A stretch of 64,000 nt of DNA from an uncultured Candidatus Saccharibacteria bacterium. GTDB taxonomy: Bacteria; Patescibacteriota; Doudnabacteria; UBA920. Both the position numbers and the translations under genes were made by a program. Location: positions 26,181 to 90,180 of the forward strand of contig CAYSUI010000003.1 in assembly GCA_964434195.1 (NCBI GenBank), read 5' to 3'. Within the stretch, counting starts at the first letter, position 1. Each line of letters starts with the position of its first letter. Under the pieces are notes generated by a model, which was not told the DNA's origin, made no database searches, and was given only the letters and a program-made list of their open reading frames with translations. Of this stretch, positions 14,011-64,000 are shown in pieces.

Positions 14011-14511
14011 ATGAAAAACTTAATTTTTTCGTTGGGGATGCTTTTGTTTAGCTTTCCTGCCCTAGCACAGACTGAGGCAACCATACCCAATAGAGTGGCG
14101 CAGGAGAATAATAACCTAACTGAAAAGCACGACCTTAAGACATTTACTTTACCCAAAACTACCGGAAACCCGTTTTTTCAACTGAACATTTTTCAGGGAA
14201 AAACCGTACCGTTCAATTACTACCCGGAAGAGCATCATGATTTTGGCCGGTTCTTCTCGGTTTCAGTTGCTCACCCTTATGTTATTTCAAATGACCCAAT
14301 GGAATTGACTCGAGCCTATGACCGGCCAAAGACAAAACTGAATTTCAACATGAAAAACCTGCTTGGTCACCCCGAATGGATGAGGGGATTTAATATGTAT
14401 CTGAGTCCTACCTTCAGACTTAGAGAAAGATCAAATAACCCATTCCGAAGAGACGAGGGTGCGAGATTTGGTTTTAGAATGACAATTATTAAACCCTACA
14501 GATCAAACTGA
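14011..14511 (+). CDS. Hypothetical secreted protein
   Basis: AGGAGGA RBS 6 nt before the ATG. Signal peptide MKNLIFSLGMLLFSFPALAQTEA. Confidence 0.6.
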   Translation: MKNLIFSLGMLLFSFPALAQTEATIPNRVAQENNNLTEKHDLKTFTLPKTTGNPFFQLNIFQGKTVPFNYYPEEHHDFGRFFSVSVAHPYVISNDPMELTRAYDRPKTKLNFNMKNLLGHPEWMRGFNMYLSPTFRLRERSNNPFRRDEGARFGFRMTIIKPYRSN

Positions 14512-14527
14512 CTGTAAGGGTTTTTTT
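14494..14527 (+). terminator. Intrinsic terminator
   Basis: CCCTACAG...CTGTAAGGG hairpin followed by T7. It overlaps the stop codon. Confidence 0.7.
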
Positions 14528-14583
14528 ATGTAAATACTTACCTTATACATGGGATTTCATATTTCACCTCATCTTCCGCGATT

Positions 14584-14642
14584 TTTTGTATTTTTTTCTT
14601 ACACCGTCCCCCCTACGGACGCTTACAGAAAAAAATACAAAA
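14584..14642. repeat. Perfect 16-bp inverted repeat with an internal GC hairpin
   Basis: TTTTGTATTTTTTTCT (14584-14599) and AGAAAAAAATACAAAA (14627-14642). The spacer contains CCGTcccccctACGG. It lies about 125 bp upstream of ruvA. Confidence 0.6.
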
Positions 14643-14765
14643 GGATCACGAAATCTGACTTGAGCTGGGAACTGGCAAAGCCAGATTCCCATCAAGAGCT
14701 AGGCAAAATCTGAAATCGAACTGAACTAGTTGGAAATAGATGGATAATTACTTTAGACTAATTTT

Positions 14766-17602: not shown

Positions 17603-18193
17603 ATGAAAGAAAAGTTTAAAATTTGTGTATCGGGCTCGGCTGTAGATAATTGCCCAACTGGGGCTTTTAAGAAGGCCTATGAGGTTGGTTACCAGATAGC
17701 CAAACAAGGAGCGATTCTACTTACCGGAGCCACAATTGGAATTCCAGAATGGGCAACGAGGGGTGCTAAGAAGGGAAAAGGAATGAGTATTGGGCTCTCC
17801 CCTGCTTCTACGAAGAGAGAGCACGTAAATACATATCGTCTACCTACTACTAATATGGATTTAATTATCTACACTGGGTTTGATTACTCTGGTAGAAACT
17901 TACTTCTTACCAGAAGCGCAGATGCTGTGATAGAAATTTGCGGAAGAGTAGGAACCTTGAATGAATTTACGATTGCTTTTGAAGATAAGAAACCTATAGG
18001 GGTACTTGAGGATACCGGTGGAACTTCTAGTGAAATACGCCATATCTTAGAGGTAAGTAAAAGAGGTCAAAAAGATGTATTCTTTGATACCGACCCTAAA
18101 AAATTAGTAGCCAAACTGCTAAAGGTGCTAAGAGAAAGAGATAGGGAAATAAATAGACACTCAAAACCTGAACTTAAAATATCGCTTGAATAA
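17603..18193 (+). CDS. LOG/TIGR00725-family Rossmann-fold nucleotide-binding protein
   Basis: LLTGATIGIPEWATRGAKKGKGMSIGL and EICGRVGTLNEF blocks, resembling the GGxxGxM / PGGxGTxxE motifs. Confidence 0.55.
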   Translation: MKEKFKICVSGSAVDNCPTGAFKKAYEVGYQIAKQGAILLTGATIGIPEWATRGAKKGKGMSIGLSPASTKREHVNTYRLPTTNMDLIIYTGFDYSGRNLLLTRSADAVIEICGRVGTLNEFTIAFEDKKPIGVLEDTGGTSSEIRHILEVSKRGQKDVFFDTDPKKLVAKLLKVLRERDREINRHSKPELKISLE

Positions 18194-18200
18194 ATGAAAA

Positions 18201-18228
18201 AGCTCTTCTGAGAAAGAAGAGCTTTTTT
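18201..18228 (+). terminator. Intrinsic terminator
   Basis: AGCTCTTCT-gagaa-AGAAGAGCT followed by T6. Confidence 0.85.
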
Positions 18229-18274
18229 AATAAGAGAAACCAAGAACTTTACGTTCTTGGGAAGAGAAAAAAGA

Positions 18275-18343
18275 CCACCGGTATCCGCCGAATTTTAGTC
18301 ACCCACTAGGATTCACGATCTGAATCACTATGGATACCGGTGG
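18275..18343. repeat. Structured element closed by a perfect 12-bp inverted repeat
   Basis: CCACCGGTATCC (18275-18286) and GGATACCGGTGG (18332-18343). Two internal hairpins: GATTCA-cgatc-TGAATC and TAGT-caccc-ACTA. Intergenic, upstream of the Mur-ligase gene. Confidence 0.55.
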
Positions 18344-18438
18344 GTTTATAATTCCCTTCTCCTCCCAGGACTTCCTGAGAGGGACTTATTATAGTCTTAT
18401 ATAAATATTATGCAAGTCTCTTGAAATTCATATAAACT

Positions 18439-19776
18439 ATGAGTATGAAAAAACTTCTTAAAAAAGTACTCCCTGAGGGCTTAATTAAAAAAATGAGGCC
18501 TTTTTATCATGCGACTCAATCTTTAATAGCGAGCAGAAAATATGGGTTCCCTAGCAGCAAACTTATAGTAATAGGGGTTACGGGGACAGCTGGGAAATCT
18601 AGCACTGTGAATATATTGGCACATATTCTTAATTCCACCGGGAATAAGACAGGTTTTGTTACTACAACCAACTACTCATACGGCGAAGCTCCTGAACTAA
18701 ATAAACACGGGCTTTCAATGCCAAATGAGTTCTTATTACAAAAACAACTGGCTTTAATGGTTGGGGAGGATTGCAAATATGCAATTATTGAAGCCACCTC
18801 TGAAGGCCTTGCTCAGAATAGACACCTAGGAATTAATTTTGATATAGCTTTGCTGACTAATTTATCACCTGCGCATATAGAGGCTCATGGGAGTTTTGAA
18901 AATTATAGAAATGCCAAGGGTAGACTTTTTCAGTCACTGGCAAAATACAAGCACAAAAAATTTATGAAGGAAAAATTAATTGGGGTAAATTTGGATGACC
19001 CAAATGCGGATTTCTTTTTAGATTTTAAAGCGGACAAATATTTCGGAGTTAGTACTAAAGAAGCTAGTAAATACCTCGGAAAAGTAAATATTTTTACAGT
19101 GGGTGAAGTGTCTAGTGATGTGAATAGAAGATTTAAACTACAAGATACTTATTTCTCTCTTAGCACGCCGGGTGAGTTTAGTGTTTATAACGCCATGCTT
19201 GCTATAGCTACCGCTAATATGCTTGGTGTTGAGCTTGAGGAAGCCGCTAGCGCTATGGAAAGCTTTAATGGTGTGCCAGGTAGGATGGAAGAAATTAGGA
19301 ATGACCGCGGAATTCGGATAATAGTAGACTATGCTTGCGAGCCGAAACATTTTGAGGAGGTATTACCAAGTGTTAGGGAGAGTACTAGGGGCAAACTAAT
19401 TCATGTTTTTGGATCTACCGGTGGCCATAGGGATGTTTCCAAGCGGTTTATTTTTGGTGAAATATCTGCTAAATTTGCGGACAATATTGTAATAACTAAT
19501 GATGATGTATATAATAGCGACCCTATGGAAATCGCTACTAATATAGAGGCGGGGGTTGCTGAAGGCAAAGGTCAAAATTCAAAAGTTAAAAGTGTGGAGA
19601 TAATACTCGACAGAAGAGAAGCAATAAAACATGCGTTAGAAATAGCGAAAGAGGGAGATACGGTTTTATTTACGGGTAAGGGTAGTGAACAGTTTTTGGT
19701 ACTTCCAGGAGATAAAAGGATTGAGTGGGATGAGAGGGAGATAATACTAGAGATACTCAGGTTATCAAGTTCATAA
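18439..19776 (+). CDS. Mur-ligase-family protein (MurD/MurE/MurF-like ATP-dependent amide ligase)
   Basis: P-loop VIGVTGTAGKSST in the Mur-ligase central-domain position. Two-domain layout. Confidence 0.65.
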   Translation: MSMKKLLKKVLPEGLIKKMRPFYHATQSLIASRKYGFPSSKLIVIGVTGTAGKSSTVNILAHILNSTGNKTGFVTTTNYSYGEAPELNKHGLSMPNEFLLQKQLALMVGEDCKYAIIEATSEGLAQNRHLGINFDIALLTNLSPAHIEAHGSFENYRNAKGRLFQSLAKYKHKKFMKEKLIGVNLDDPNADFFLDFKADKYFGVSTKEASKYLGKVNIFTVGEVSSDVNRRFKLQDTYFSLSTPGEFSVYNAMLAIATANMLGVELEEAASAMESFNGVPGRMEEIRNDRGIRIIVDYACEPKHFEEVLPSVRESTRGKLIHVFGSTGGHRDVSKRFIFGEISAKFADNIVITNDDVYNSDPMEIATNIEAGVAEGKGQNSKVKSVEIILDRREAIKHALEIAKEGDTVLFTGKGSEQFLVLPGDKRIEWDEREIILEILRLSSS

Positions 19777-53349: not shown

Positions 53350-53614
53350 TTAATGTGACAAGTTATGCTTGGCAAAATTTTTACTTAAAGACCCCTCGCA
53401 TAGTTTATAGCTAAATGAAATTTAGACCTACATTAATCATCGTATAATTTAAAGTTGTGGTATCTATGCACTTTATATGATCTTCTATAGAAAAATTAAT
53501 GCCTGCACTTATATACAAAAGAGATGAATCTATTTTTTAGTAAGGGTTTAAGAAATGCTCCGATAAATAAAAATAGAGAGGAATATATCCTACCGATATT
53601 CAACTCTCTAAAAT

Positions 53615-54757
53615 TTAGACTATTTCTTGAAACTCAGATACGGTAAGGCGGAGGTATTTTGGGTCGTCTATGTAGATACCTACCTCGGCCCACTGGGCTT
53701 CGGTGACGGCGGTGTATTCTTTTGTGGGCATGATACCGGGATGATCTCCGCGCGGGTCTATCCACCGTGTGGCGGCTTGGCCGTCGGTTTTTCTGCGCCA
53801 GCGGAGATATCTGACCGCTTCGACTCGGTACTTTCGCTGTGGGTCGCCGGGAGCAGCGAAACGAACCACTTCGTAGGTTCCGTCTCCCTGATCCACAATA
53901 ATAGTGGTTTCATAGCGTTTTTTCCGCGCGGTCTCGACGCGAGTCTCAAGATCGGCCGGTGGCTCGGTGAGGATAAGTTCAATTACCGAACCCCCTCCCC
54001 AACCGCGTCTGTCCGGACCTTCGCAGACTTTGACGTGTACACACCGGGAGCCGAAGATTTTTTGGAATTCAACCTTGAGGCTTGATTTGGCTTTCGCCGA
54101 ATCCACTAACCCCCAGCCACCACTGGCTTTTATGAATGTACTAGCTTTATTCGAACGTCCCTGTTGGAACGTGCCGTGGTTGTGCAGGCGGAGAAGGACC
54201 ACTTCCTCTTTTGTCATCCTCTCCGGTATTGGTGCCGGTGGCAGATCCACCTGGTTCCAGCCGCCAGGAATTTTTTCTATTGCACCTCCGGTCCAGCGAC
54301 GAAGGACTGGCGTCTCACCCCAACCGCACTGTGGGCAGTTGTTCGGGAATACCTTTTCGTGCCAGAGCTTAGTCATACGGAACGCGAGTTTGTAGTCACA
54401 GAATTCAGCGGGGCGAATTTGTTCGCCTGGATTGTAGCGGTAGCCGCAACCCGAGCAAAGGATTACGAGATAAGGTTCTTCTCCAGCGTTTTCGTCAGGA
54501 CGGACCACCGGAAGCCAACCTTTTTTTGTTTTTTCCCAAAGGTCGCGTTTGACCGTGCGGGTGAGTGTATCGCGCTCGAAACACACGAATTTCGAGTCTG
54601 GGTACTTACCTCCGTACTTCGAAAAAAAATCGAGTTCGTCTTGGACTTCCACGTAGTACTCATTTGCGAACCCGAAACCCGAGCGATACCCGTCCTCACC
54701 CGGAACCTTACTGCTGAAACTCTTGAAAAATACTGCACTTAACTTTGCCATATTCAT
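53615..54757 (-). CDS. Hypothetical zinc-ribbon protein, 380 aa, in the GC-rich island
   Basis: AAGGAG RBS. CSGCG...(36 aa)...CPQCG C4 zinc ribbon. About 55% GC. Confidence 0.6.
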   Translation of the reverse strand: MNMAKLSAVFFKSFSSKVPGEDGYRSGFGFANEYYVEVQDELDFFSKYGGKYPDSKFVCFERDTLTRTVKRDLWEKTKKGWLPVVRPDENAGEEPYLVILCSGCGYRYNPGEQIRPAEFCDYKLAFRMTKLWHEKVFPNNCPQCGWGETPVLRRWTGGAIEKIPGGWNQVDLPPAPIPERMTKEEVVLLRLHNHGTFQQGRSNKASTFIKASGGWGLVDSAKAKSSLKVEFQKIFGSRCVHVKVCEGPDRRGWGGGSVIELILTEPPADLETRVETARKKRYETTIIVDQGDGTYEVVRFAAPGDPQRKYRVEAVRYLRWRRKTDGQAATRWIDPRGDHPGIMPTKEYTAVTEAQWAEVGIYIDDPKYLRLTVSEFQEIV

Positions 54758-54874
54758 ACTGTCTCCTTATTGTTGATGTTGTTGATTTTGAATTCTTTAT
54801 TTAAATAGATGATTACCTTCCCCTACTTAAATAAAGGGGGGTGACAAAGATTGACTTCGTCACCTCCGAAAGAC

Positions 54875-56962
54875 TTACAGTTTTGAAGCAATGTTAATGC
54901 CATAGGTTTTTTCGACCTCGGCAATTTTTTCGCACTGCGCAAGCGTTAGGCCTGCTTTCGGGATGAAAGATTCTACTTCGGGATGTTCGTCTCGTTTCGA
55001 TTCTTTCTTCCAAGAGAAATACATCTCACCTGCCTCGCCGTCCACGAAATCCCACTCGTACCTACCTTCTGCCTTGCGGGGTCGGCAGTAGTTGCGATCA
55101 GCCTCGCGCTCGGTACCGTCGGCACGTAGAACATAACCACCGCTCCAGCCGCCCTCACAGTAGACCTCGAGTTGCAAGTAGATCTCGCCAGCCCTGTGAC
55201 GCTCGATGAGTGGGTCGAGGGAGTCCATGAGCGCGTCGTACTCCGCGACTTTCGCTAGAAATGCGTCGCGGAGTCCCCACTGATCTTCGACCGGCAGCTC
55301 GGCGAACTTCTTGCCTTGCTGTTCCTCCACAAAATTTTGCAGACTGCTACGCTGTCCCCAATTGAGGAAGTCGTAGCGGCCGTCGTTTTCGTAGAGGTCG
55401 AACAGGTCGTCCCAGGCTTCGGCGAGCAACGTGGCGATGGGCGCGTCGATTGGGTTTTCCGGCTCATGGTCCCACCAGGTGAACCACTCGCCTTCGAGTT
55501 GTTCGAATTCGCCACCGATGAGTTCGGCGTCTTCACGCGACATGACGAAGTGAAACTTGTCGTCGTACATGATTCGGCCGTGCGGTACGTGTTTTAGGCC
55601 TGGGTGGTTCTCGATGACTACCCAGGGTCCCGCGAACGAGCGGAGCGGCATGAGTGCTAGGATTTCATCCGTCAAACTTTCGGCAAACTTACTTACTTCG
55701 TCTGAGTCTGGAAACTCGAACGAAGCAATTTCCTTCTTCACCCAGCCGAGGATTTGCCGGCGAACCCCTTCGCGGGAAAAGTCTTCGTGTACGTCGAAGA
55801 TTCGACTATGTACGTTGGTTTTCCCGAGACCTTTTTCGTGATCCTCGCGGCCAAGCAACAGCTCGCAATCGTATTTGACGACCACGGCCGGATGGCGCTC
55901 GCTCCACGTTCTTGTGCTTGTGGTAAAGCCGCACAGCTCGTCACTGTCGCGGCCGTTCCACTCCGATACTTCCTCGCTATAGTAGAACGTCCACACCTCG
56001 GCCCTCACTTCGAACTTGCGCTCGCCTGCGAGTTGCGTGAGCTGCGGCAGCGCGCTCCAGGTTTTCACTTGGGTGATAAGCGCGTCCGCCTCGGCTTCGA
56101 AGCCGCCCTGAGCGGAAGCTTCAACTTTGGGGTATAGCCCGAAAGTTTTACCCCAAATTTCTTTTCCACCTTGAAGAACTTTCCAGCGCTGACTCACCCG
56201 CTCTGGTTGCTTGACCCAGCCGCGAGTTTGCAATTTCGGAGGATCAAAGGTAATTGGCGCTTCGAGTTCGAAACTGAGTTGCTCGTCGCATGACCTAACC
56301 TTGAATTCCCATCGCAGACGGATTTTAGCTTCGGCCAATTTCTCCTCCATAACTGTTGGCCAGACATTTTTCATGCTGTCCCAGCCTTTTCGTTCGCTCA
56401 CCACTTCATGCACGCCCAGATCAATTTTAGGAACCCAGCCGCGGCCGTTGATTTCGATTCTGACTTTTTGAATGACCCGATAGACGGGGCCATTCTCTAA
56501 GTCTGCGGAAACAAATTCGGCTCTGGGATTCTCTCCGCTGACGCTGACCGCGTACAGCAGCTCAAATCCGCCGCCGATATTGCCGCTACCGCCACTGATT
56601 GGAAGTGTGGCGCCGATGAGCGCCAGGACTTCCGTCGGGTTTTGCTCGAAGCGAAGTTTTTCGGATTCTTGCTTCGCGAGAATTTCCTGGCGGTTTTTTT
56701 CTTCCGCCTCAACCCTCTGCTTTTCGGCTTCGAGCTGTTTGTTGTGTTCCTCGAAGGTCTGAGCGCTCGTTGCGCTCCAACCTTTGTCGGTTTGCTCGGT
56801 GGAAATGACCCAAATCATTTTTCTCGCCAGATCTGATCCGGCGGGAACTTGGGGTGAGAAGGATTTACGGTGAATGAAAAACTTTTTTCCGCCGTACTGA
56901 AAAAAACCGAACCCTTTATCCGAGAACCACGTTGAAATCGTTGCCTCAAACTGTTGGTACAT
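54875..56962 (-). CDS. Hypothetical protein, 696 aa, with an N-terminal cold-shock domain, in the GC-rich island
   Basis: AGGGGG RBS 7 nt before the ATG at 56962. ISTWFSDKGFGFFQYGGKKFFIHRKSF is a cold-shock-domain RNP1 block. The next part is coiled-coil. The remaining roughly 550 aa are unrecognised. About 58% GC. Confidence 0.6.
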   Translation of the reverse strand: MYQQFEATISTWFSDKGFGFFQYGGKKFFIHRKSFSPQVPAGSDLARKMIWVISTEQTDKGWSATSAQTFEEHNKQLEAEKQRVEAEEKNRQEILAKQESEKLRFEQNPTEVLALIGATLPISGGSGNIGGGFELLYAVSVSGENPRAEFVSADLENGPVYRVIQKVRIEINGRGWVPKIDLGVHEVVSERKGWDSMKNVWPTVMEEKLAEAKIRLRWEFKVRSCDEQLSFELEAPITFDPPKLQTRGWVKQPERVSQRWKVLQGGKEIWGKTFGLYPKVEASAQGGFEAEADALITQVKTWSALPQLTQLAGERKFEVRAEVWTFYYSEEVSEWNGRDSDELCGFTTSTRTWSERHPAVVVKYDCELLLGREDHEKGLGKTNVHSRIFDVHEDFSREGVRRQILGWVKKEIASFEFPDSDEVSKFAESLTDEILALMPLRSFAGPWVVIENHPGLKHVPHGRIMYDDKFHFVMSREDAELIGGEFEQLEGEWFTWWDHEPENPIDAPIATLLAEAWDDLFDLYENDGRYDFLNWGQRSSLQNFVEEQQGKKFAELPVEDQWGLRDAFLAKVAEYDALMDSLDPLIERHRAGEIYLQLEVYCEGGWSGGYVLRADGTEREADRNYCRPRKAEGRYEWDFVDGEAGEMYFSWKKESKRDEHPEVESFIPKAGLTLAQCEKIAEVEKTYGINIASKL

Positions 56963-57253
56963 TAGTTGCCCCCTAAATATTTTCAAAGTTATTACCAATT
57001 TTAGAAATTCGATAGTTCTGCTCTGTTGCAGGTATTAAATTTCCAAAAAAGGCGGGGAGTACTTTATTCTCTCCTCTTACTGTTCTGTATAAGGAATTGA
57101 ATGTGAGCATTTTATTTTGAGTTTAAGCGTTAGTATACTATAAATTTATATAAATGTCAATAATATTGATACAAAATTATATATTTTGTAATATATATAA
57201 ATAAAAATAAGCTTTCTATGCTTGTTTTTATAAGTTATTTTGTAACAAATGTG

Positions 57254-57282
57254 TTTACAAAAATTATAGAGTGTGATATAAT
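57254..57282 (+). promoter_or_regulatory. Sigma-70-type promoter of the first TrmB-like gene
   Basis: TTTACA, then a 17-nt spacer, then TATAAT. Confidence 0.55.
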
Positions 57283-57311
57283 TACATTAGAATATCGATT
57301 AAATCTCATAG

Positions 57312-57333
57312 ATTCCCGAATGATTTCGGGAAT
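57312..57333 (+). promoter_or_regulatory. Palindrome ATTCCCGA-atgat-TCGGGAAT in the 5-prime UTR
   Basis: 8-bp perfect inverted repeat. It is the second of only two copies in the window. The other is at 26376-26395. Confidence 0.5.
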
Positions 57334-57355
57334 AACACAGGAGCAAATTAATACT

Positions 57356-58141
57356 ATGAATATTCCACACAACCATACTTATTTTGAACATCTTACCCTT
57401 GCTGGACTTACTTCTCAGCAGGCTTTGGTGTATGAGTCTTTACTTAGGGGTGGAGCTCGGGCGGCGAGTAAAGTTGCAAATGATACACATTTAGAAAGGG
57501 TTATTGCGTACCGTGTGCTCGACCAGCTTTTAGAAATGGGATTGGTAAATAAAAAGGACGACCCGGGTAAAGTGGCGCGTTTTGAAGCGGCGCATCCCAG
57601 CCGTATTCAGGAGCTTATTGAACAAAGAGAAAAAGATGCACGGACTGCAAAAGAGTCTTTTGCTTCGGTGCTTTCTTCTCTTTCTTCTGAGTACAGCTTG
57701 TCGGTTGGGAAACCTTCGGTGCAATTTTTTGAAGGACTGGAAGGAATTCGTACGGTGGCATTCGATAACTTAACTGCAAGAGGCGAGATACTCGCCTACC
57801 TCGACATGTCGGTTATTCAGGCGCATCTAAAAGACCTTAACGATGAGTATGTTAAGGTCAGAAGACGACTTAAAATAAAGAAACGAAATTTAGTTAATGA
57901 TACTCCGGAAAACCGCGTGTATTTAGCAGACTACCACCGTGATATTACAGATATTCGCTTAGTAGACCGTGCTCACTCCCCCATGCAGTTTAAGAGCATG
58001 CTTCAGATTTACGACAACAAAATTAGCTATATGACTTTTGAAAAAAACAAATACATTGGAGTTATTATTGAAGACGCGCATATCGCAGAACTACATAGAC
58101 AGCTGTATGAATTTACTTGGGAGAAAGCACGGGCATTATAA
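57356..58141 (+). CDS. TrmB-like HTH transcriptional regulator, paralog 1
   Basis: N-terminal wHTH (LTLAGLTSQQALVYESLL...) and a C-terminal effector-like domain. Paralogous to 60412..61173. Confidence 0.6.
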   Translation: MNIPHNHTYFEHLTLAGLTSQQALVYESLLRGGARAASKVANDTHLERVIAYRVLDQLLEMGLVNKKDDPGKVARFEAAHPSRIQELIEQREKDARTAKESFASVLSSLSSEYSLSVGKPSVQFFEGLEGIRTVAFDNLTARGEILAYLDMSVIQAHLKDLNDEYVKVRRRLKIKKRNLVNDTPENRVYLADYHRDITDIRLVDRAHSPMQFKSMLQIYDNKISYMTFEKNKYIGVIIEDAHIAELHRQLYEFTWEKARAL

Positions 58142-58150
58142 AACCCCGCG

Positions 58151-59317
58151 CTAGGCGGGGCGTGGTGCATCGGGTGGAATTTCTAGCTCTACTCTTGGTT
58201 CGCCGGTTTCTAAAGTAAAATGTCGTCCTTCTCTGAAACCCATTTTTATATATTTAGGAAGCATAGGTTGATTGGGACTGGTTATGCTTCTTATTTTTAT
58301 ATTTCTTTTTCGTTCATCGGTAAGTGTTTGGCTCAAAAATAACTCACCCACTTTTTCTTTCTGATAGCTTTTGCGTACATTAAACCCACCGGCATATATA
58401 CTCTTTACCTCTCCGTCTTCGCCGCGCTCGTCTATATAATAGACTCCGGCGACTATTATTTCTTTGTCCTTTAATACCGCGAGCTTTGCTTTGGGGTTAT
58501 TTTTGAGCTCATTAAATTTACGGTTTAGTTCTTCGATATACTCACTTGAAGTTTTTTCTTCCCCTTCTTTTGTTATCCAATTTTCTGTGTTTATTTCTAT
58601 GAGAGCCTGGATATTTTCTGGTGGTATATTGTTTCCGTAGTCAGATTCAATAGTTAGAGTCTTTATTTTATGAAGTGAAAAATCTGGATCGCTTTCTAGA
58701 GCGGCACGAATGGTTTGTGTGGTTAGCAGTGCGTCTGCGTTAATATGTGCAAGCTCTTTGGGTGATTGCTCGCTAGTTACATATGAAAGACTTATGCCTG
58801 TACCCTGATTACCGAGGACACGAGCTGCACGGTGTATAAGGTTTTGCTTTGCTAATGTACTTACTGCTCCTTTTTTGACATCTTCTGCCTGAAACGATTC
58901 CTCCACAAAGGTGTCGACTTTTTCGGCGTTGTCTAGAATTGCGTTAAACGTAGACATTAATTCGGATACTGCGCGAATGTCTCTTACGTTGCGGGTGAGT
59001 GAAACAAGCGTTAGGGCGTAGTCTTCACTTACTTCGGCTACAGAAAACCCACTTAATAACTCTACCTGAGTTTGTTCGGGCAGCCTTTGTATTCCGGAAC
59101 GGAGCTGTGCTGTTGCACCTGTTGGGTATTCTGCGTATTTCTGCAAAAATTTTGCTAAAGGAACTTTTGCGCGGTCTGGTATTTTGTAGGCTGTACTAAT
59201 ATTTAGTACAGCGTCTATATATTCTGTTTCTTTCCCTTCTTGGTATTCTAAAGATTCTGTTTCTGAAGGGACATAAGAGTCGTGTGGGTTATGTCCGGGA
59301 GTATGGAATTCAAGCAT
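58151..59317 (-). CDS. Hypothetical protein with a C-terminal GNAT-like acetyltransferase fold
   Basis: C-terminal block VRKSYQKEKVGELFL resembles the GNAT motif A (R/Q-x-x-G-x-G/A). The N-terminal roughly 280 aa are unknown. The start is chosen at ATG 59317. The track gives 59386. Confidence 0.45.
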   Translation of the reverse strand: MLEFHTPGHNPHDSYVPSETESLEYQEGKETEYIDAVLNISTAYKIPDRAKVPLAKFLQKYAEYPTGATAQLRSGIQRLPEQTQVELLSGFSVAEVSEDYALTLVSLTRNVRDIRAVSELMSTFNAILDNAEKVDTFVEESFQAEDVKKGAVSTLAKQNLIHRAARVLGNQGTGISLSYVTSEQSPKELAHINADALLTTQTIRAALESDPDFSLHKIKTLTIESDYGNNIPPENIQALIEINTENWITKEGEEKTSSEYIEELNRKFNELKNNPKAKLAVLKDKEIIVAGVYYIDERGEDGEVKSIYAGGFNVRKSYQKEKVGELFLSQTLTDERKRNIKIRSITSPNQPMLPKYIKMGFREGRHFTLETGEPRVELEIPPDAPRPA

Positions 59318-59363
59318 AAGTTTTATATTATAGAAATAGTATAGCGAAGAGTAGGAAGATATT

Positions 59364-59745
59364 AAAAAAGCGCAGCGGGTTAACACTGCGCTTGTTTAAT
59401 TTTCGCTACTTCCGGATTCTGGGCTCAATTATGTTAAGCGCACAAGAGGAAGCTTAACGTTGGTACGTAGCTTGATCAACCGGGAAAGCCCGACTCTGAT
59501 TCGCAAGCTCTTAAAAACTTGGGAAGCTTCCTTCAGGAGCAAAACCATTTCTATTTTCTGGTACTATAAATTCTCCTAACATTTATAGATTTTGATTTCC
59601 ATGACTTTACGGGTTGCACCTGTCATGGGCGGTTTAGAGCATTGTACTCCCTTTTCTAGATTCTGTTTAGAATCCAGGAAAGGGAGCGCGAAAGAAAATT
59701 CTTTCGCGGCCAATGTTTATAGCACATTGGCAAAGCGTAAAAATC
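59364..59745 (-). ncRNA. Candidate structured noncoding RNA or long regulatory leader, ending in an intrinsic terminator
   Basis: Minus-strand series of stable hairpins: CGCGAAAGAA/TTCTTTCGCG, CTCCCTTT...AAAGGGAG, CATGAC/GTCATG and CTATAAAT/ATTTATAG. The 3-prime end is AGCGCAG-loop-CTGCGCT followed by T6 at 59392-59364. No convincing ORF. Confidence 0.4.
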
Positions 59746-60082
59746 ATTCGGCAACGTCATATTTCCACATCGGGATTATGACGTAGTTGCCGCCCCAACG
59801 CTTGTTAGCAAAGTCAAATGCGTGACGGGCTTTGTGCCCGTCTTTGAAGGTCGATCTTACGACCAACCTTGTCATTAATTCTTCTATTGATTCCCAATCC
59901 CCTCTGGGGACCAGAAAGAATTCTCCGCAGCGAGTGGAAATGCTACTGAGAGCGTAGGCGCAGTTGAGTTGCGCCTCGAGGCACTCTTTGTGCCCTAGTG
60001 CTTCACAACCCAAACCACACTTGGTGGCCAAGGTTGTCATTTTTTTAAGCCACTCCATAGTTTCCTCGAATCTGTATGCCAT
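59744..60082 (-). CDS. Hypothetical small four-Cys protein, 112 aa
   Basis: AGGAGGA RBS. Cys cluster CGLGCEALGHKECLEAQLNC. Confidence 0.5.
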   Translation of the reverse strand: MAYRFEETMEWLKKMTTLATKCGLGCEALGHKECLEAQLNCAYALSSISTRCGEFFLVPRGDWESIEELMTRLVVRSTFKDGHKARHAFDFANKRWGGNYVIIPMWKYDVAE

Positions 60083-60376
60083 AAATCCTCCTGTGCCGTT
60101 TTAAGCCCGGCAGGCTTTTATATAACTGTCCTGGCGTTCGCCAGAAAGCGGAGTTTCCTCCTCTTGAAAGAAAACTATTTTTCTGCCCAGAGGAGGAAGC
60201 TACCTTTCGGACCAATTTATATGAGCTTAAAAACTAATCCTTATTTGTTTTTATTTGAAAGATCAGTATACCTGAAATTAACATATTTGTCAATATATTA
60301 CTGATATTATTACTTATTATTATATATTCTCTCTAATTTATTTGGCTTATACGTATAGGTAACTGTCAGTTTTAAC

Positions 60377-60405
60377 TTGACAATTTTTTATTTTTGGCAT
60401 ATAAT
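60377..60405 (+). promoter_or_regulatory. Consensus sigma-70 promoter driving a near-leaderless TrmB-like gene
   Basis: TTGACA, then a 17-nt spacer, then TATAAT. The ATG is 7 nt downstream of the -10 box. Confidence 0.65.
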
Positions 60406-60411
60406 TTAGAT

Positions 60412-61173
60412 ATGTTTGAATCACTTTTAGGAAAAATCGGGCTCAGTGAAAAAGAAGCGCAGATTTATGAATTATTGGTTTCTGTTGGACCGAGCAATAT
60501 TAAAAGTATTCTTTTTCATACCAAGCTTAAACGTGGGAATGCGTATTACTTGCTGGATAATTTGAAAGCTTTGGAACTTGTTGAACAAACACTTGTGCGC
60601 GGTCGTACTGTTTTTTCTGCGCGGAACCCGGAGCAATTGGAACTATTGTTGGCAAAACAAAAAACCGAAGTTGCTAAGGCGGAAGAGGAACTTCGTGGAT
60701 CACTCCCCCACTTGCGCACTCTCTTTCAGACCGCTGCGCATAAACCTGGTGTTCGATTTTATGAAGGCATTGAAGGTATTAAAGCAATTCACCGGGAAAT
60801 GCTTTCGGAGCGAAAAGAAATTTTAGCGTATGTATTTTTAAAAAAAGAATGGGACAATGTTTTGGGTAACGATTTTTGGAAATGGTATTACCAGGAACGA
60901 ATTAAAAACAATATAAGTGTACGGGCAATTGCCGTAGACTCACCAGAAGGGAGAGACTACAAAGCGAAAGATGCAAAAGAGCAAAGAGAAACCCGTTTGG
61001 TAAATGCGAAGGAATACCCTATTTCTATTGAAAAAAATGTTGTAGGGAACAAAGTGGCGTTTTTGAGCTTAAAACCAGATGAACAAGTGGGTGTGTTAGT
61101 GGAGAACACTGCGATAGCAGAGACAGAGCGAGCAATTTTTGAACTTTGCTGGAAACAAATACGACCACAGTAA
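60412..61173 (+). CDS. TrmB-like HTH transcriptional regulator, paralog 2
   Basis: wHTH (SEKEAQIYELLVSVGPSN...) and a C-terminal domain aligning with paralog 1 (VRFYEGIEGIKAI vs VQFFEGLEGIRTV). Confidence 0.6.
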   Translation: MFESLLGKIGLSEKEAQIYELLVSVGPSNIKSILFHTKLKRGNAYYLLDNLKALELVEQTLVRGRTVFSARNPEQLELLLAKQKTEVAKAEEELRGSLPHLRTLFQTAAHKPGVRFYEGIEGIKAIHREMLSERKEILAYVFLKKEWDNVLGNDFWKWYYQERIKNNISVRAIAVDSPEGRDYKAKDAKEQRETRLVNAKEYPISIEKNVVGNKVAFLSLKPDEQVGVLVENTAIAETERAIFELCWKQIRPQ

Positions 61174-61187
61174 TGTGGTCGTATTTT

Positions 61188-63038
61188 TTATTGCTCCTTA
61201 CCTACTCTGCCGTAACGGTAACGCACCTCTTCTGGAGTTAAATGTTTGGGCACTTGCCCTTTGGTTCCCGGCTTTCTTGCACTCACCACCAGTTCTTTTA
61301 CTTCTAACTGTTCCATGCCGTCTACTCCTGGTGTTGTTACCAGATATGTGTCTATTTGCACATCTACAAAACCGGTTGCTCGAAGAAGATTAGCTATTTC
61401 GCGGCGACCGGGGAAAAATCTGGGAGTAGAGTCGGATGTTTCTACTGTATTTGCAACACCAGGCGCAGTGGATGTTTCGTCTCGAATAGTTCCGTATGGT
61501 TCTTGTGGGTGTTCGTTGTGGTATGCGGCGAGCGATTTTGCGTAGGTACCTACTGTACGGTCTGGAATTTCTATGGTTATGAGCCCACCCTCGCACAGAA
61601 GGAAGAATGCTTCGCGTAAAACTTTTCTTTGGTTATCTTGTGTACCGGCGTCGCAAAAAGTGTGCCAATCGAAGGAAACCATTTCGAAGGGATTATTAAA
61701 GAAGAATTCTTTACCAAACTTTGCATTACTCAAATCTTCTTTTGCACCGCTTCCAAATAGGTTATTTGCATTTACTAAACCATCGGATTGTTTTTGTCTT
61801 AAACCCTCAAAGGTGTCTTCCCTAAGGTCTAGCATGTTACCTTTTATAGGAATTAAATTTGCTTTTAGGATGGTGAGATCGGTGATGATTTGTTCTTTCT
61901 GTATTATTCTTTGATTTACTAGCTCAACTAAAGGTGAGGATGGGTCACCTTTTTCGTATTTGGCAATTTCTTCTTCTAAGCGACTGTAAACTTTTTTTAA
62001 TTGTTCCTCGGATAGATCTATACCAACAATTTTTTTTCCGAGAATTACCATAATAGAATCTATCCTGGCCTCACCGATGCCGACATCGAGGACTAGACGC
62101 GGGTGCCTGTCGCCTATTGTAAGTTCATCTGGTACCCATGCCCCTGAAAGTGCTTTTAATTTATGGCGAATTGCTTCGGTAGTGCTTGCAGTTTTACCTT
62201 CCCAAACTCTTAGGTCCGAATTATTGTAGAGGTTTGCCTGTTTGTCGCTTAGCGCTTTCCCTTCCATGAAATCGGGCTTGTTCTCCTCTGTATACTTAAG
62301 TTCTTTTGCTATGAGTAGGCAACTTGCTATTTCTTGGCTGGTGCTTGCGTGTAGGAAATAATCAAAATAATCTCGTTCATATGACGGTAGCCCACCTTCG
62401 ACATGCAGAATAATTATTGGCAGTGGTTTATTCTGTAGTTTGGCGGAAACTAACAGTTTATGTATTTCATCTGCAGCTTGTCGGTGGTTGCTAAAATCTT
62501 CCTGACTTGTATAGGAGAGAGTATAGGTTTTGTTTGGGTCAAGTTCGAAAGTACTAACGTCTAACTCTTTATTTGGTATGGACTCTATGCTTAAAGTTAC
62601 ATTCGCAACTTGACTCGCTTCGGGAGTGGAATATTTGTCTAGAAGTTTAATACCTTGCTCTTTGAACGACTCAGCACTATTTGAGAGTGAGAGAAAATTT
62701 ATGAGTGTTGATTCTAACTCTTTTAACTGCATTAAAAGTTGTTCTGGTGAAGTTAACTTAATATATGTGTCCCCTATTACAATTGTTACCGACTCTTTTC
62801 TTTCAACACTGGCGAGTGTTTGTGTTAAAGTCTCTGAATATTTTTTTAGTGCTTTAACAATTTGCTCGGTCCACAATTCTAGACCTTGTATGCGTGTTGC
62901 ATACATTTCTAATTTAGTAGTTACTTCACTGATAGCGACGTCGCAGTTTACAATAGACTCCTCTATATTACTGCGAAAAGTTGATTCGAGTTGTTCCCCT
63001 TCCGGGGACTGGTGCGTTTCTTGTTCGATTCTTTTCAT
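61188..63038 (-). CDS. Large protein with a C-terminal class I SAM-dependent methyltransferase domain
   Basis: Motif I VLDVGIGEARID (hhDhGxGxG-like) followed by the post-I acidic residue and motif IV-like FDWHTFCD. The N-terminal roughly 300 aa are an unknown coiled-coil-rich region. Confidence 0.55.
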   Translation of the reverse strand: MKRIEQETHQSPEGEQLESTFRSNIEESIVNCDVAISEVTTKLEMYATRIQGLELWTEQIVKALKKYSETLTQTLASVERKESVTIVIGDTYIKLTSPEQLLMQLKELESTLINFLSLSNSAESFKEQGIKLLDKYSTPEASQVANVTLSIESIPNKELDVSTFELDPNKTYTLSYTSQEDFSNHRQAADEIHKLLVSAKLQNKPLPIIILHVEGGLPSYERDYFDYFLHASTSQEIASCLLIAKELKYTEENKPDFMEGKALSDKQANLYNNSDLRVWEGKTASTTEAIRHKLKALSGAWVPDELTIGDRHPRLVLDVGIGEARIDSIMVILGKKIVGIDLSEEQLKKVYSRLEEEIAKYEKGDPSSPLVELVNQRIIQKEQIITDLTILKANLIPIKGNMLDLREDTFEGLRQKQSDGLVNANNLFGSGAKEDLSNAKFGKEFFFNNPFEMVSFDWHTFCDAGTQDNQRKVLREAFFLLCEGGLITIEIPDRTVGTYAKSLAAYHNEHPQEPYGTIRDETSTAPGVANTVETSDSTPRFFPGRREIANLLRATGFVDVQIDTYLVTTPGVDGMEQLEVKELVVSARKPGTKGQVPKHLTPEEVRYRYGRVGKEQ

Positions 63039-63120
63039 AGAGGAAGTATATGGGAGAGTGAAATTTTGGACAAAAAATAAAAAAAGAAGGGGATGTTTTG
63101 TGATCCCCTTTGAGTGTTTT

Positions 63121-63792
63121 TCAAGTGAGGTCTATTTCGACCTCCTCGAAGTCCTCTTGGTCATCGTAGAAAACGTGACCGTAAATTGTTAAGCCTTCGA
63201 TTTTGGTAATGTTGGCGTAAAGTCTATCGGGATGGTTTATCCAATCCCATGCACCGGATTCAACAGACCTTACTACTAGTAAATATTTTATAACAGATTC
63301 TCTGTCTTTTTCCGTAATACTAGTGGGGACGTCTATCCCCTCTCTTTGTTCGGTTTCACCCACGGCTTTTTTTATTGCTTTGAGAGGAATTTTCTTTAAC
63401 TTCTTTTCGAAGTTTTCCACCTCTCCTTCCTTAGCGGTTTTTTGGGCGAGGAGTTTTTTGTATTTTTTTGGATTCATTAGACTCAACCGACAGAAGTCGG
63501 AGCAAAACCTAATCTCCTCAGGACCGCCTATTAGCACATATCCTCCAGGGTCGTTTGTGCAATTTGGGTAGGCGGCGCAATAAACTTTGAGCCCGCATTC
63601 CAATTCTTTAAGATATTTAAGAATTTTTTGGTTGTGCTCCTGATGCTCTGGAGCACCCATGTCCCGATATCCGCAGGCGAGACAGAGGTTTGGATCTGTA
63701 CCCATGCGCTTAATAAAATCTGTTCTATACTTTGAATTTTCTGGCTGAGCAGCTACTGCTACCCAAAAAAGTTGCTGATGAGTTAATTCCAT
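63121..63792 (-). CDS. Uracil-DNA-glycosylase-superfamily-like protein (tentative)
   Basis: Cys cluster near the N-terminus (CLACGY...C...C), GYVLIGGPEE resembling the family 4 GEGPG block, and a C-terminal HPDRLYAN resembling the HPS/HPA motif B. Confidence 0.35.
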   Translation of the reverse strand: MELTHQQLFWVAVAAQPENSKYRTDFIKRMGTDPNLCLACGYRDMGAPEHQEHNQKILKYLKELECGLKVYCAAYPNCTNDPGGYVLIGGPEEIRFCSDFCRLSLMNPKKYKKLLAQKTAKEGEVENFEKKLKKIPLKAIKKAVGETEQREGIDVPTSITEKDRESVIKYLLVVRSVESGAWDWINHPDRLYANITKIEGLTIYGHVFYDDQEDFEEVEIDLT

Positions 63793-64000
63793 TTTTTTCT
63801 CCTTAAAATTTTTGGCCGAGCTTTTTTACTGGCCGGGTTTTTGGTTTTCCCTAGGGCGCGTGCCCTTGGGAGTATTGATTTTGGTTTAGCGGGTGGAAGG
63901 AAGGGGTTCCCTACAGTCGTTAAAACAAAATGGCTTGCTTGGAATTTCTATACATAGAGAACCCCTGGGCAAACCATTTACTTACTGAGTTCTCTCTAAA

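Follow-up and report, generated by a model that had tools for sequence, protein, structure and literature searches.

The window analysed here, a DNA stretch of 64,000 nucleotides in full, carries at positions 59364-59745 a hairpin-rich stretch of 382 nt on the minus strand, the same strand as both of its flanking genes. The upstream neighbour, p112, encodes a small Cys-containing protein, and the stretch starts directly 3′ of the TGA stop codon of this gene. A read-through of this TGA under genetic code 4 or 25 was considered and rejected, as the frame meets a TAA after 8 codons. At its other end, the stretch closes with an intrinsic terminator, the only convincing one on the minus strand within 58900-60500, and the ATG of a GNAT-fusion gene (59317) follows about 45 nt past this terminator, with a promoter-like site in between. 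The T run of the terminator is found on the minus strand only, and a U-G pair of its stem corresponds on the plus strand to a C-A mismatch. The GNAT-fusion protein matches the Pfam family Acetyltransf_10 with an E value of 3.2e-4, a match below the curated cut-off.

The features of the locus are collected in Table 1. The open reading frames within and overlapping 59364-59745 measure only 34-64 aa on both strands, and none is preceded by a convincing ribosome-binding site. The sequence-only reading of this DNA had proposed that the region lacks a credible ORF, that it folds on the minus strand into a succession of stable hairpins and that it ends in a clean terminator just ahead of the promoter and start codon of the GNAT-fusion gene; each of these proposals was borne out, with all of the described features present in the sequence and with the stem, loop and T run expected of an intrinsic terminator. 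Among the loops, UUCCUCUUG (59454-59438 region) is complementary to AAGAGGA in the leader of p112 itself. An integron attC site, an oriT and a single-strand origin were weighed by eye only and rejected, as no integrase, relaxase or Rep gene is found nearby by Pfam.

The gene p112 is preceded by a promoter that stands back to back with that of a TrmB-family regulator, and by a structured 5′ leader. A hairpin of this leader (60152-60201) has arms of 23 nt, in which CUUCCUCCUCU pairs with AGAGGAGGAA; the latter resembles a Shine-Dalgarno sequence and lies upstream of the genuine AGGAGG of p112, and the hairpin may serve in translational control. Inverted repeats of the form TTGTCA...TGACAA (60287-60304 and 60366-60383) flank the two promoters and are candidate operators; similar TTGTCA-N-TTGACA motifs occur upstream of TrmB homologs in two relatives, G094 and G085.

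Table 1. Coordinates of the features at the locus, in positions of the window (G000, the assembly that holds this DNA; G001, a genome of the same genus).
Feature	Position	Strand	Evidence or remark
GNAT-fusion gene, 388 aa from ATG	58151..59317	-	downstream neighbour, outside the element
Promoter-like TTAATA-16-TATACT of the GNAT-fusion gene	59338..59365	-	9/12 matches; conserved in G001
Intrinsic terminator	59364..59393	-	stem 59393-59368, 10 pairs (6 G-C), 6-nt loop, run of six T
Hairpin-rich untranslated stretch	59394..59743	-	sequence, folding and inverted-repeat search; without Rfam match
Hairpin GCCAATGT/ACATTGGC	59731-59709	-	
Perfect palindrome CGCGAAAGAA/TTCTTTCGCG	arms 59687-59696 and 59699-59708	-	as RNA 8-9 bp, 4-nt loop
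Nested hairpin CTCCCTTT...AAAGGGAG	arms 59647-59664 and 59669-59686	-	89% complementary
Hairpin CCATGAC/GTCATGG	59628-59599	-	
Hairpin CTATAAAT-GTTAGGAGA-ATTTATAG	59588-59564	-	
Further hairpin	59509-59469	-	
p112, gene of an orphan 112-aa Cys-containing protein	59744..60082	-	ORF, stop TGA
Structured 5′ leader of p112	60083..60262	-	z -4.91, 0/200 shuffles as good
Promoter-like TTGACA-17-TATACT of p112	60265..60293	-	11/12 matches
Promoter of the TrmB-family gene	60377-60405	+	12/12 matches; back to back with the p112 promoter
TrmB-family regulator	60394-61173	+	Pfam
616-aa methyltransferase-domain protein	61188-63038	-	Pfam
3.7-kb segment present in G000, absent at the syntenic site of G001	59349..63075	.	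synteny breakpoints, junctions

Folding strength and the genomic background

The minimum free energy (MFE) of the minus strand of the stretch is -129.9 kcal/mol, compared to -89.2 ± 5.5 kcal/mol in dinucleotide shuffles (z -7.47), and 0 of 100 shuffles folded as well. The plus strand displays a z of -6.61, also with 0 of 100 dinucleotide shuffles as good, and the energies of the two strands are equal. With G-U pairs accounting for 15 of 124 pairs in the MFE structure of the minus strand and 10 of 119 in that of the plus strand, neither the G-U counts nor the fold energy gives a strand preference for the stretch. Most of the structure resides in the 5′ half (59544-59745), and after correction for G+C the 200-nt segments at about 59551-59850 make up one of the three spots of the 64-kb window with the strongest structure. 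A 200-nt segment of the 3′ half (59387-59586) is ordinary, having GC-adjusted z values of -0.5 and -0.7 and rank 536 of 792 intergenic segments.

The two other most structured spots of the window lie at 18151-18450 and 14451-14750. Both (18194-18438 and 14451-14750) are hairpin-dense intergenic DNA without an Rfam match, and the former features a terminator directly behind the upstream gene, followed by further hairpins ahead of the next gene. As a genome-wide yardstick, ORFs of at least 90 aa were masked, leaving 220 intergenic stretches with a length of 200 nt or more. On this scale the stretch ranks 39th of 220 by its best 200-nt segment, which itself ranks 54th of 792, and 12 of the most structured intergenic stretches of the genome gave 0 Rfam matches. 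The stretch is therefore genuinely structured, yet hairpin-rich intergenic DNA is common in this genome, and its hairpins could on that account be neutral. One of these 12, an intergenic stretch of 381 nt outside the window (C3:16657-17037; L057), folds into a long, almost perfect hairpin of about 160 nt (z -11.2), has no Rfam match and looks like a MITE or long inverted repeat.

No second copy of the stretch was detected in its own genome by blastn-short, which apart from the self-match returned nothing but chance matches of 13-18 nt. Likewise, a covariance model of hairpins 1-3 (R1) recovered only the stretch and its own reverse strand from the G000 assembly.

Known RNA families and the RNase P RNA locus

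Rfam 15 at gathering threshold gave 0 matches in the whole window. At E values up to 10, the segment 59250-59850 gave seven matches, all far below the cut-offs and none to RNase P, tmRNA, SRP or 6S RNA, so that no family is assigned to the stretch. ARAGORN found nothing in 58000-61500, and the tmRNA of G000 is located on contig C14 (128 bits). The models of SRP RNA and 6S RNA have no match anywhere in G000, and those of RNase P RNA (RF00010 and RF00011) have none in the whole assembly, though rnpA is present.

Bacterial RNase P RNA shares several traits with the stretch, namely a length of about 370 nt, a high degree of structure and a GGGAAAGCCCGAC motif resembling one P4 strand. The stretch nevertheless fails the covariance models, lacks a second P4 strand or other conserved regions, and bears the P4-like motif on the strand opposite to the terminator; this motif (CGGGAAAGCCCGACTC, plus strand 59481-59496) forms the tip of one hairpin. 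An RNase P RNA match is present in 40 of 40 relatives, leaving G000 as the only one of 41 genomes without it. In G001 the RNA (86 bits, with canonical P4 strands) is encoded between a sugar transferase gene and the genes of the ribosomal proteins S9/L13, and neither strand of the stretch aligns with it. The orthologous transferase gene of G000 (99% identical) begins at the second base of contig C2 (C2:1-1456), and 143 nt separate the S9/L13 genes from the end of contig C16 (C16:28310-29442). The expected locus thus falls into an assembly gap between two contig ends, which accounts for an assembly without an RNase P RNA match. The resemblance to a P4 strand had already been noticed and set aside in the sequence-only reading, and this rejection is upheld by the failure of both models, by the lack of alignment with the RNA of G001 and by the position of the true locus elsewhere.

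The RNase P RNA of G001 (L023:2981-3377) contains, within an insertion, a 16-nt motif (positions 49-66) that occurs 22 times in G000 at no more than one mismatch, one of these copies being at window position 14671 on the minus strand, compared to 0 occurrences for shuffled motifs. Copies are often situated in the most structured intergenic stretches, including several of the 12 top ones. The motif looks like a small dispersed repeat family, which may be the reason that the RNase P locus did not assemble; it is not contained in the stretch.

A further observation concerns the signal recognition particle. The RNA models RF00169 and RF01854 each match 0 of 21 genomes, the M domain of Ffh (PF02978) matches 0 of 41 genomes, and the SRP54-type GTPase domain of Ffh and FtsY (PF00448) is not found in G000, while both protein families match in 14 of 14 genomes used as positive controls. 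On these profile searches, this Saccharibacteria order seems to do without a signal recognition particle pathway. A literature search yielded no published statement of such an absence in Saccharibacteria, and the SRP genes mentioned in PMC10768705 are those of the host.

Distribution of the stretch and its neighbours among relatives

The G000 assembly (1.41 Mb, 94% complete) was compared with that of its congener G001. Window positions 57115-59348 match G001 C1 197446-195182 at 81% identity and 63076-63813 match 195172-194448 at 85%, and the two matching blocks are only 10 nt apart in G001. The intervening 3.7 kb of DNA were consequently either inserted in G000 or deleted from G001, and this segment holds the stretch, p112, the TrmB-family regulator and the methyltransferase-domain protein. 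Both junctions of this segment are alike in presenting a terminator, a T run and then a TATACT-type promoter. At the far junction, the methyltransferase-domain gene starts (63038, minus strand) only 6 nt (TCCTCT) past its TATACT box and has no Shine-Dalgarno sequence, suggesting an mRNA that is probably leaderless. The surrounding DNA is also variable; window positions 53493-57115 differ from G001, and G001 carries about 5 kb absent from G000 at window position ~63800. The GNAT ortholog of G001 (81% identity) retains the same proximal promoter directly behind the terminator of another gene, with the stretch absent.

Searches with DNA found no relative of the stretch. A 421-nt query against 41 genomes matched only itself. 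A 961-nt query matched eight of 146 genomes of the order, with the structured part in 0 of the 7 foreign ones, whose matches covered only query positions 2-74 (an AT-rich promoter) or 250-277 (the ORF). No match was found in phage and plasmid collections. The R1 model, run against 101 genomes, recovered the stretch itself at 118 bits, its own reverse strand at 30 bits and one noise match (E 0.09), with little power for distant relatives as it was built from one sequence entered twice. By these searches, the stretch is species-specific and outside every known RNA family.

The protein encoded by p112 is nearly as isolated. A collection of 5.8 billion proteins contains two matches, namely p112 itself in a 98-aa version and a single relative, P0002, which is encoded on a 1007-bp contig and is 79% identical over all 112 residues; its identical start and end support a real gene ending at 59744. 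There is no relative beyond p112 itself among 1.84 billion representatives, and 1 of 101 genomes, its own, encodes it. A scan of JGI metagenomes with two p112 peptide patterns returned 574 stretches and 0 relatives. With no Pfam, PADLOC or Atlas match, p112 is an orphan as judged by sequence comparison; the AlphaFold model of the protein is poor (pLDDT 44.2).

The TrmB-family and methyltransferase-domain genes form a convergent pair, which recurs in three of 100 other genomes searched (G016, G094 and G085). All four loci, that of G000 included, display strong back-to-back promoters homologous to the p112/TrmB pair, and at all four a significantly structured noncoding RNA is predicted downstream of the divergent promoter. 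In G016 (L045:1352-3798), the TrmB regulator is 73% identical and the homologous divergent promoter faces an unrelated gene (182 aa) whose leader is structured (z -4.7) and whose 3′ region is strongly so (z -9.8). The locus of G094 (L043:3020-3628) has a structured noncoding region (z -6.2) with blocks conserved in G085 (L044:3640-4191), and the two have in common a long, conserved hairpin as well as a terminator-like one about 130 nt past the divergent promoter. With the exception of the promoter region, the noncoding sequences of these loci are unrelated to the stretch, and the tentative pattern across the four is one of analogy, not homology. Regions of G094 (L043:600-3100) and G085 (L044:1-1500) have 56-68% G+C in genomes of about 42% G+C, carry ORFs that overlap on both strands and are without an Rfam match; they could represent foreign DNA or a large RNA.

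Readings of the stretch

The sequence-only reading had left three possibilities, an independent sRNA, a long structured 3′ untranslated region (UTR) of the upstream gene and a riboswitch-like leader of the GNAT-fusion gene. Only the 3′ UTR conforms well to the anatomy of the locus; the leader does not, and the sRNA would depend on a weak internal promoter. Neither the 3.7-kb species-specific segment around the stretch nor the abundance of comparably hairpin-rich intergenic DNA in this genome featured in that reading. Our preferred interpretation, to which we assign a probability of roughly 0.55, is that the stretch is the long hairpin-rich 3′ UTR of the orphan p112 transcription unit. Transcription would start at the strong promoter 60293-60265, run through the structured 175-nt leader, the ORF (60082-59744) and the stretch of about 350 nt, and stop at the intrinsic terminator 59393-59364. 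The stacked stem-loops and the terminator would shield the 3′ end of the mRNA from exonucleases and insulate the adjoining GNAT promoter from read-through, and a stable 3′ fragment could also act as a 3′-UTR-derived sRNA. Both the co-transcription of the stretch with p112 and any stabilising or regulatory role are what we infer from this arrangement.

Several observations argue for a 3′ UTR. The stretch is on the same strand as p112 and begins past its stop codon, no convincing terminator intervenes between the p112 promoter (11/12) and 59393, and the unit ends at a terminator that is oriented by its minus-only T run and by the U-G pair that becomes a mismatch on the plus strand. The excess structure of the stretch (z -7.47) is accompanied by structure in the p112 leader (z -4.91), and the analogous locus of G016 combines a structured leader with a structured 3′ region. 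On the other side of the balance are the equal fold energy on both strands, the failure to find a homolog, the 39th rank of 220 and the ordinary 3′ half.

Public sequencing data bear on transcription to a small extent. Twelve runs from three studies, all of freshwater or wastewater, contain at least half of the sampled words of 58900-60500, and this DNA may have come from any of seven among them. The contigs of four runs were compared with the window. Two metatranscriptome contigs are identical to the window, one of 199 nt on the stretch (X15, 59424-59622) and one of 232 nt on the p112 ORF (X14, 59789-60020); they derive from different runs of one study and are low-depth contigs that carry neither strand nor ends and could stem from DNA carry-over, and they are thus faintly suggestive of, or at least compatible with, transcription of the p112 ORF and its tail. 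Such contigs are absent over 58900-59423, 59623-59788 and 60021-60500, which at a depth of 4-5 is no evidence either way. A DNA contig (X13, 59574-59841) differs by one substitution and a 2-nt insertion at 59721, and both changes affect only the loop of the first hairpin.

The 3′-UTR-derived sRNAs of enterobacteria, such as CpxQ, SroC and DapZ, offer one comparison. Like these RNAs and the 3′ UTRs that give rise to them, the stretch lies on the same strand past a stop codon, has its terminator in common with the mRNA and forms stable stem-loops, along with a possible seed-like CU-rich loop. Unlike them, it is species-specific and, at about 350 nt, unusually long, and it has no sequence or structure homology to the described examples. 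A second comparison is provided by the REP/BIME palindromic stem-loops, which stabilise upstream mRNA in E. coli. The stretch, too, is a cluster of perfect palindromes in 3′ intergenic DNA that could block 3′-5′ exonucleases, but REP sequences form multi-copy families and the stretch is unique in its genome.

An alternative that we regard as rather unlikely holds that the stretch is a neutral or DNA-level hairpin-rich spacer, with palindromes that arose by a template switching-type mutation or are relics of a decayed element, and with no RNA function beyond the terminator even if passively transcribed. Most of the stems are indeed perfect Watson-Crick palindromes that fold equally on both strands, many intergenic stretches are equally or more structured, including 12 top ones without an Rfam match, and the stretch is absent from G001 and has no homolog in the genomes searched. 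Against this, a z of -7.5 and five perfect stems of 7-10 bp in about 200 nt are much for drift alone, the stretch is not a copy of any repeat of the genome, and the single variant seen (X13) alters only a loop.

It appears improbable that the stretch encodes an independent sRNA, which would start from an internal promoter near 59669-59641, end at the terminator 59393-59364 and measure about 270 nt. A promoter-like TAAACA-17-TACAAT is present at 59669-59641 on the minus strand, the X15 contig would lie wholly within the predicted sRNA, and the CU-rich loops (UUCCUCUU) resemble anti-Shine-Dalgarno seeds. The internal site, however, has only 9/12 matches and lies inside a hairpin, nine such sites were found in the scan compared to a shuffle mean of 3.4, and the contigs cannot reveal transcript ends.

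Very doubtful is a structured mRNA for a small toxic or regulatory peptide akin to type I toxins, encoded by a 39-aa ORF (59548-59429) or a 45-aa ORF (59713-59576). Small minus-strand ORFs do exist, and in the MFE structure the 5′ end folds back on the region immediately ahead of the terminator, as in fold-back mRNAs; yet neither ORF has a start codon properly spaced from a Shine-Dalgarno sequence, the 39-aa peptide is cationic and has no hydrophobic membrane helix, and the product of the 45-aa ORF is not hydrophobic either. A riboswitch-like leader or attenuator controlling the GNAT-fusion gene would resemble the stretch in its structure and in its closing intrinsic terminator, here about 45 nt ahead of the start codon, but this reading is very unlikely, since the GNAT promoter elements are downstream of the terminator and conserved in G001, where the ortholog keeps them behind another gene's terminator without the stretch, and Rfam yields no cis-regulatory match. 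A divergent housekeeping RNA (RNase P RNA, SRP RNA, 6S RNA or tmRNA), brought to mind by an assembly with rnpA yet without a match to the RNase P, SRP or 6S models and by the one-sided P4-like motif, can practically be dismissed, given the lack of any such match to the stretch at E values up to 10 and of any alignment with the RNase P RNA of G001, the canonical RNA found in 40 of 40 relatives, the placement of its G000 locus in the C16-C2 gap, the tmRNA on C14, the concurrent lack of SRP proteins, and an absence from a genome of the same genus that is incompatible with an essential RNA.

To return to the 3′ UTR of p112, a broader and speculative extension, which we consider doubtful, is that the locus exemplifies a recurrent, sequence-variable architecture of Saccharibacteria, in which a TrmB regulator beside a methyltransferase-domain gene is coupled by a strong back-to-back TTGACA-17-TATNNT promoter to a long, hairpin-dense, mostly noncoding transcript with variable orphan cargo. 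If true, the tail would not be a passive UTR but would serve a TrmB-controlled unit as a functional RNA domain, either as a riboregulator or as an RNA that partners the orphan protein.

The analysis removes the readings as a divergent RNase P RNA and as a riboswitch, and explains the apparent absence of RNase P RNA from this assembly. The value of the element itself is modest, as it is confined to a single species, without homologs, in a genome where hairpin-rich spacers are common. A literature search on structured noncoding RNA in Patescibacteria found nothing relevant and, to our knowledge, the noncoding RNAs of Saccharibacteria and of other ultra-small episymbiotic bacteria are almost entirely uncharacterised. 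If validated, a structured 3′ UTR of this length, or an sRNA derived from a 3′ UTR, in a strain-variable island would provide a first handle on RNA-level control in these organisms.
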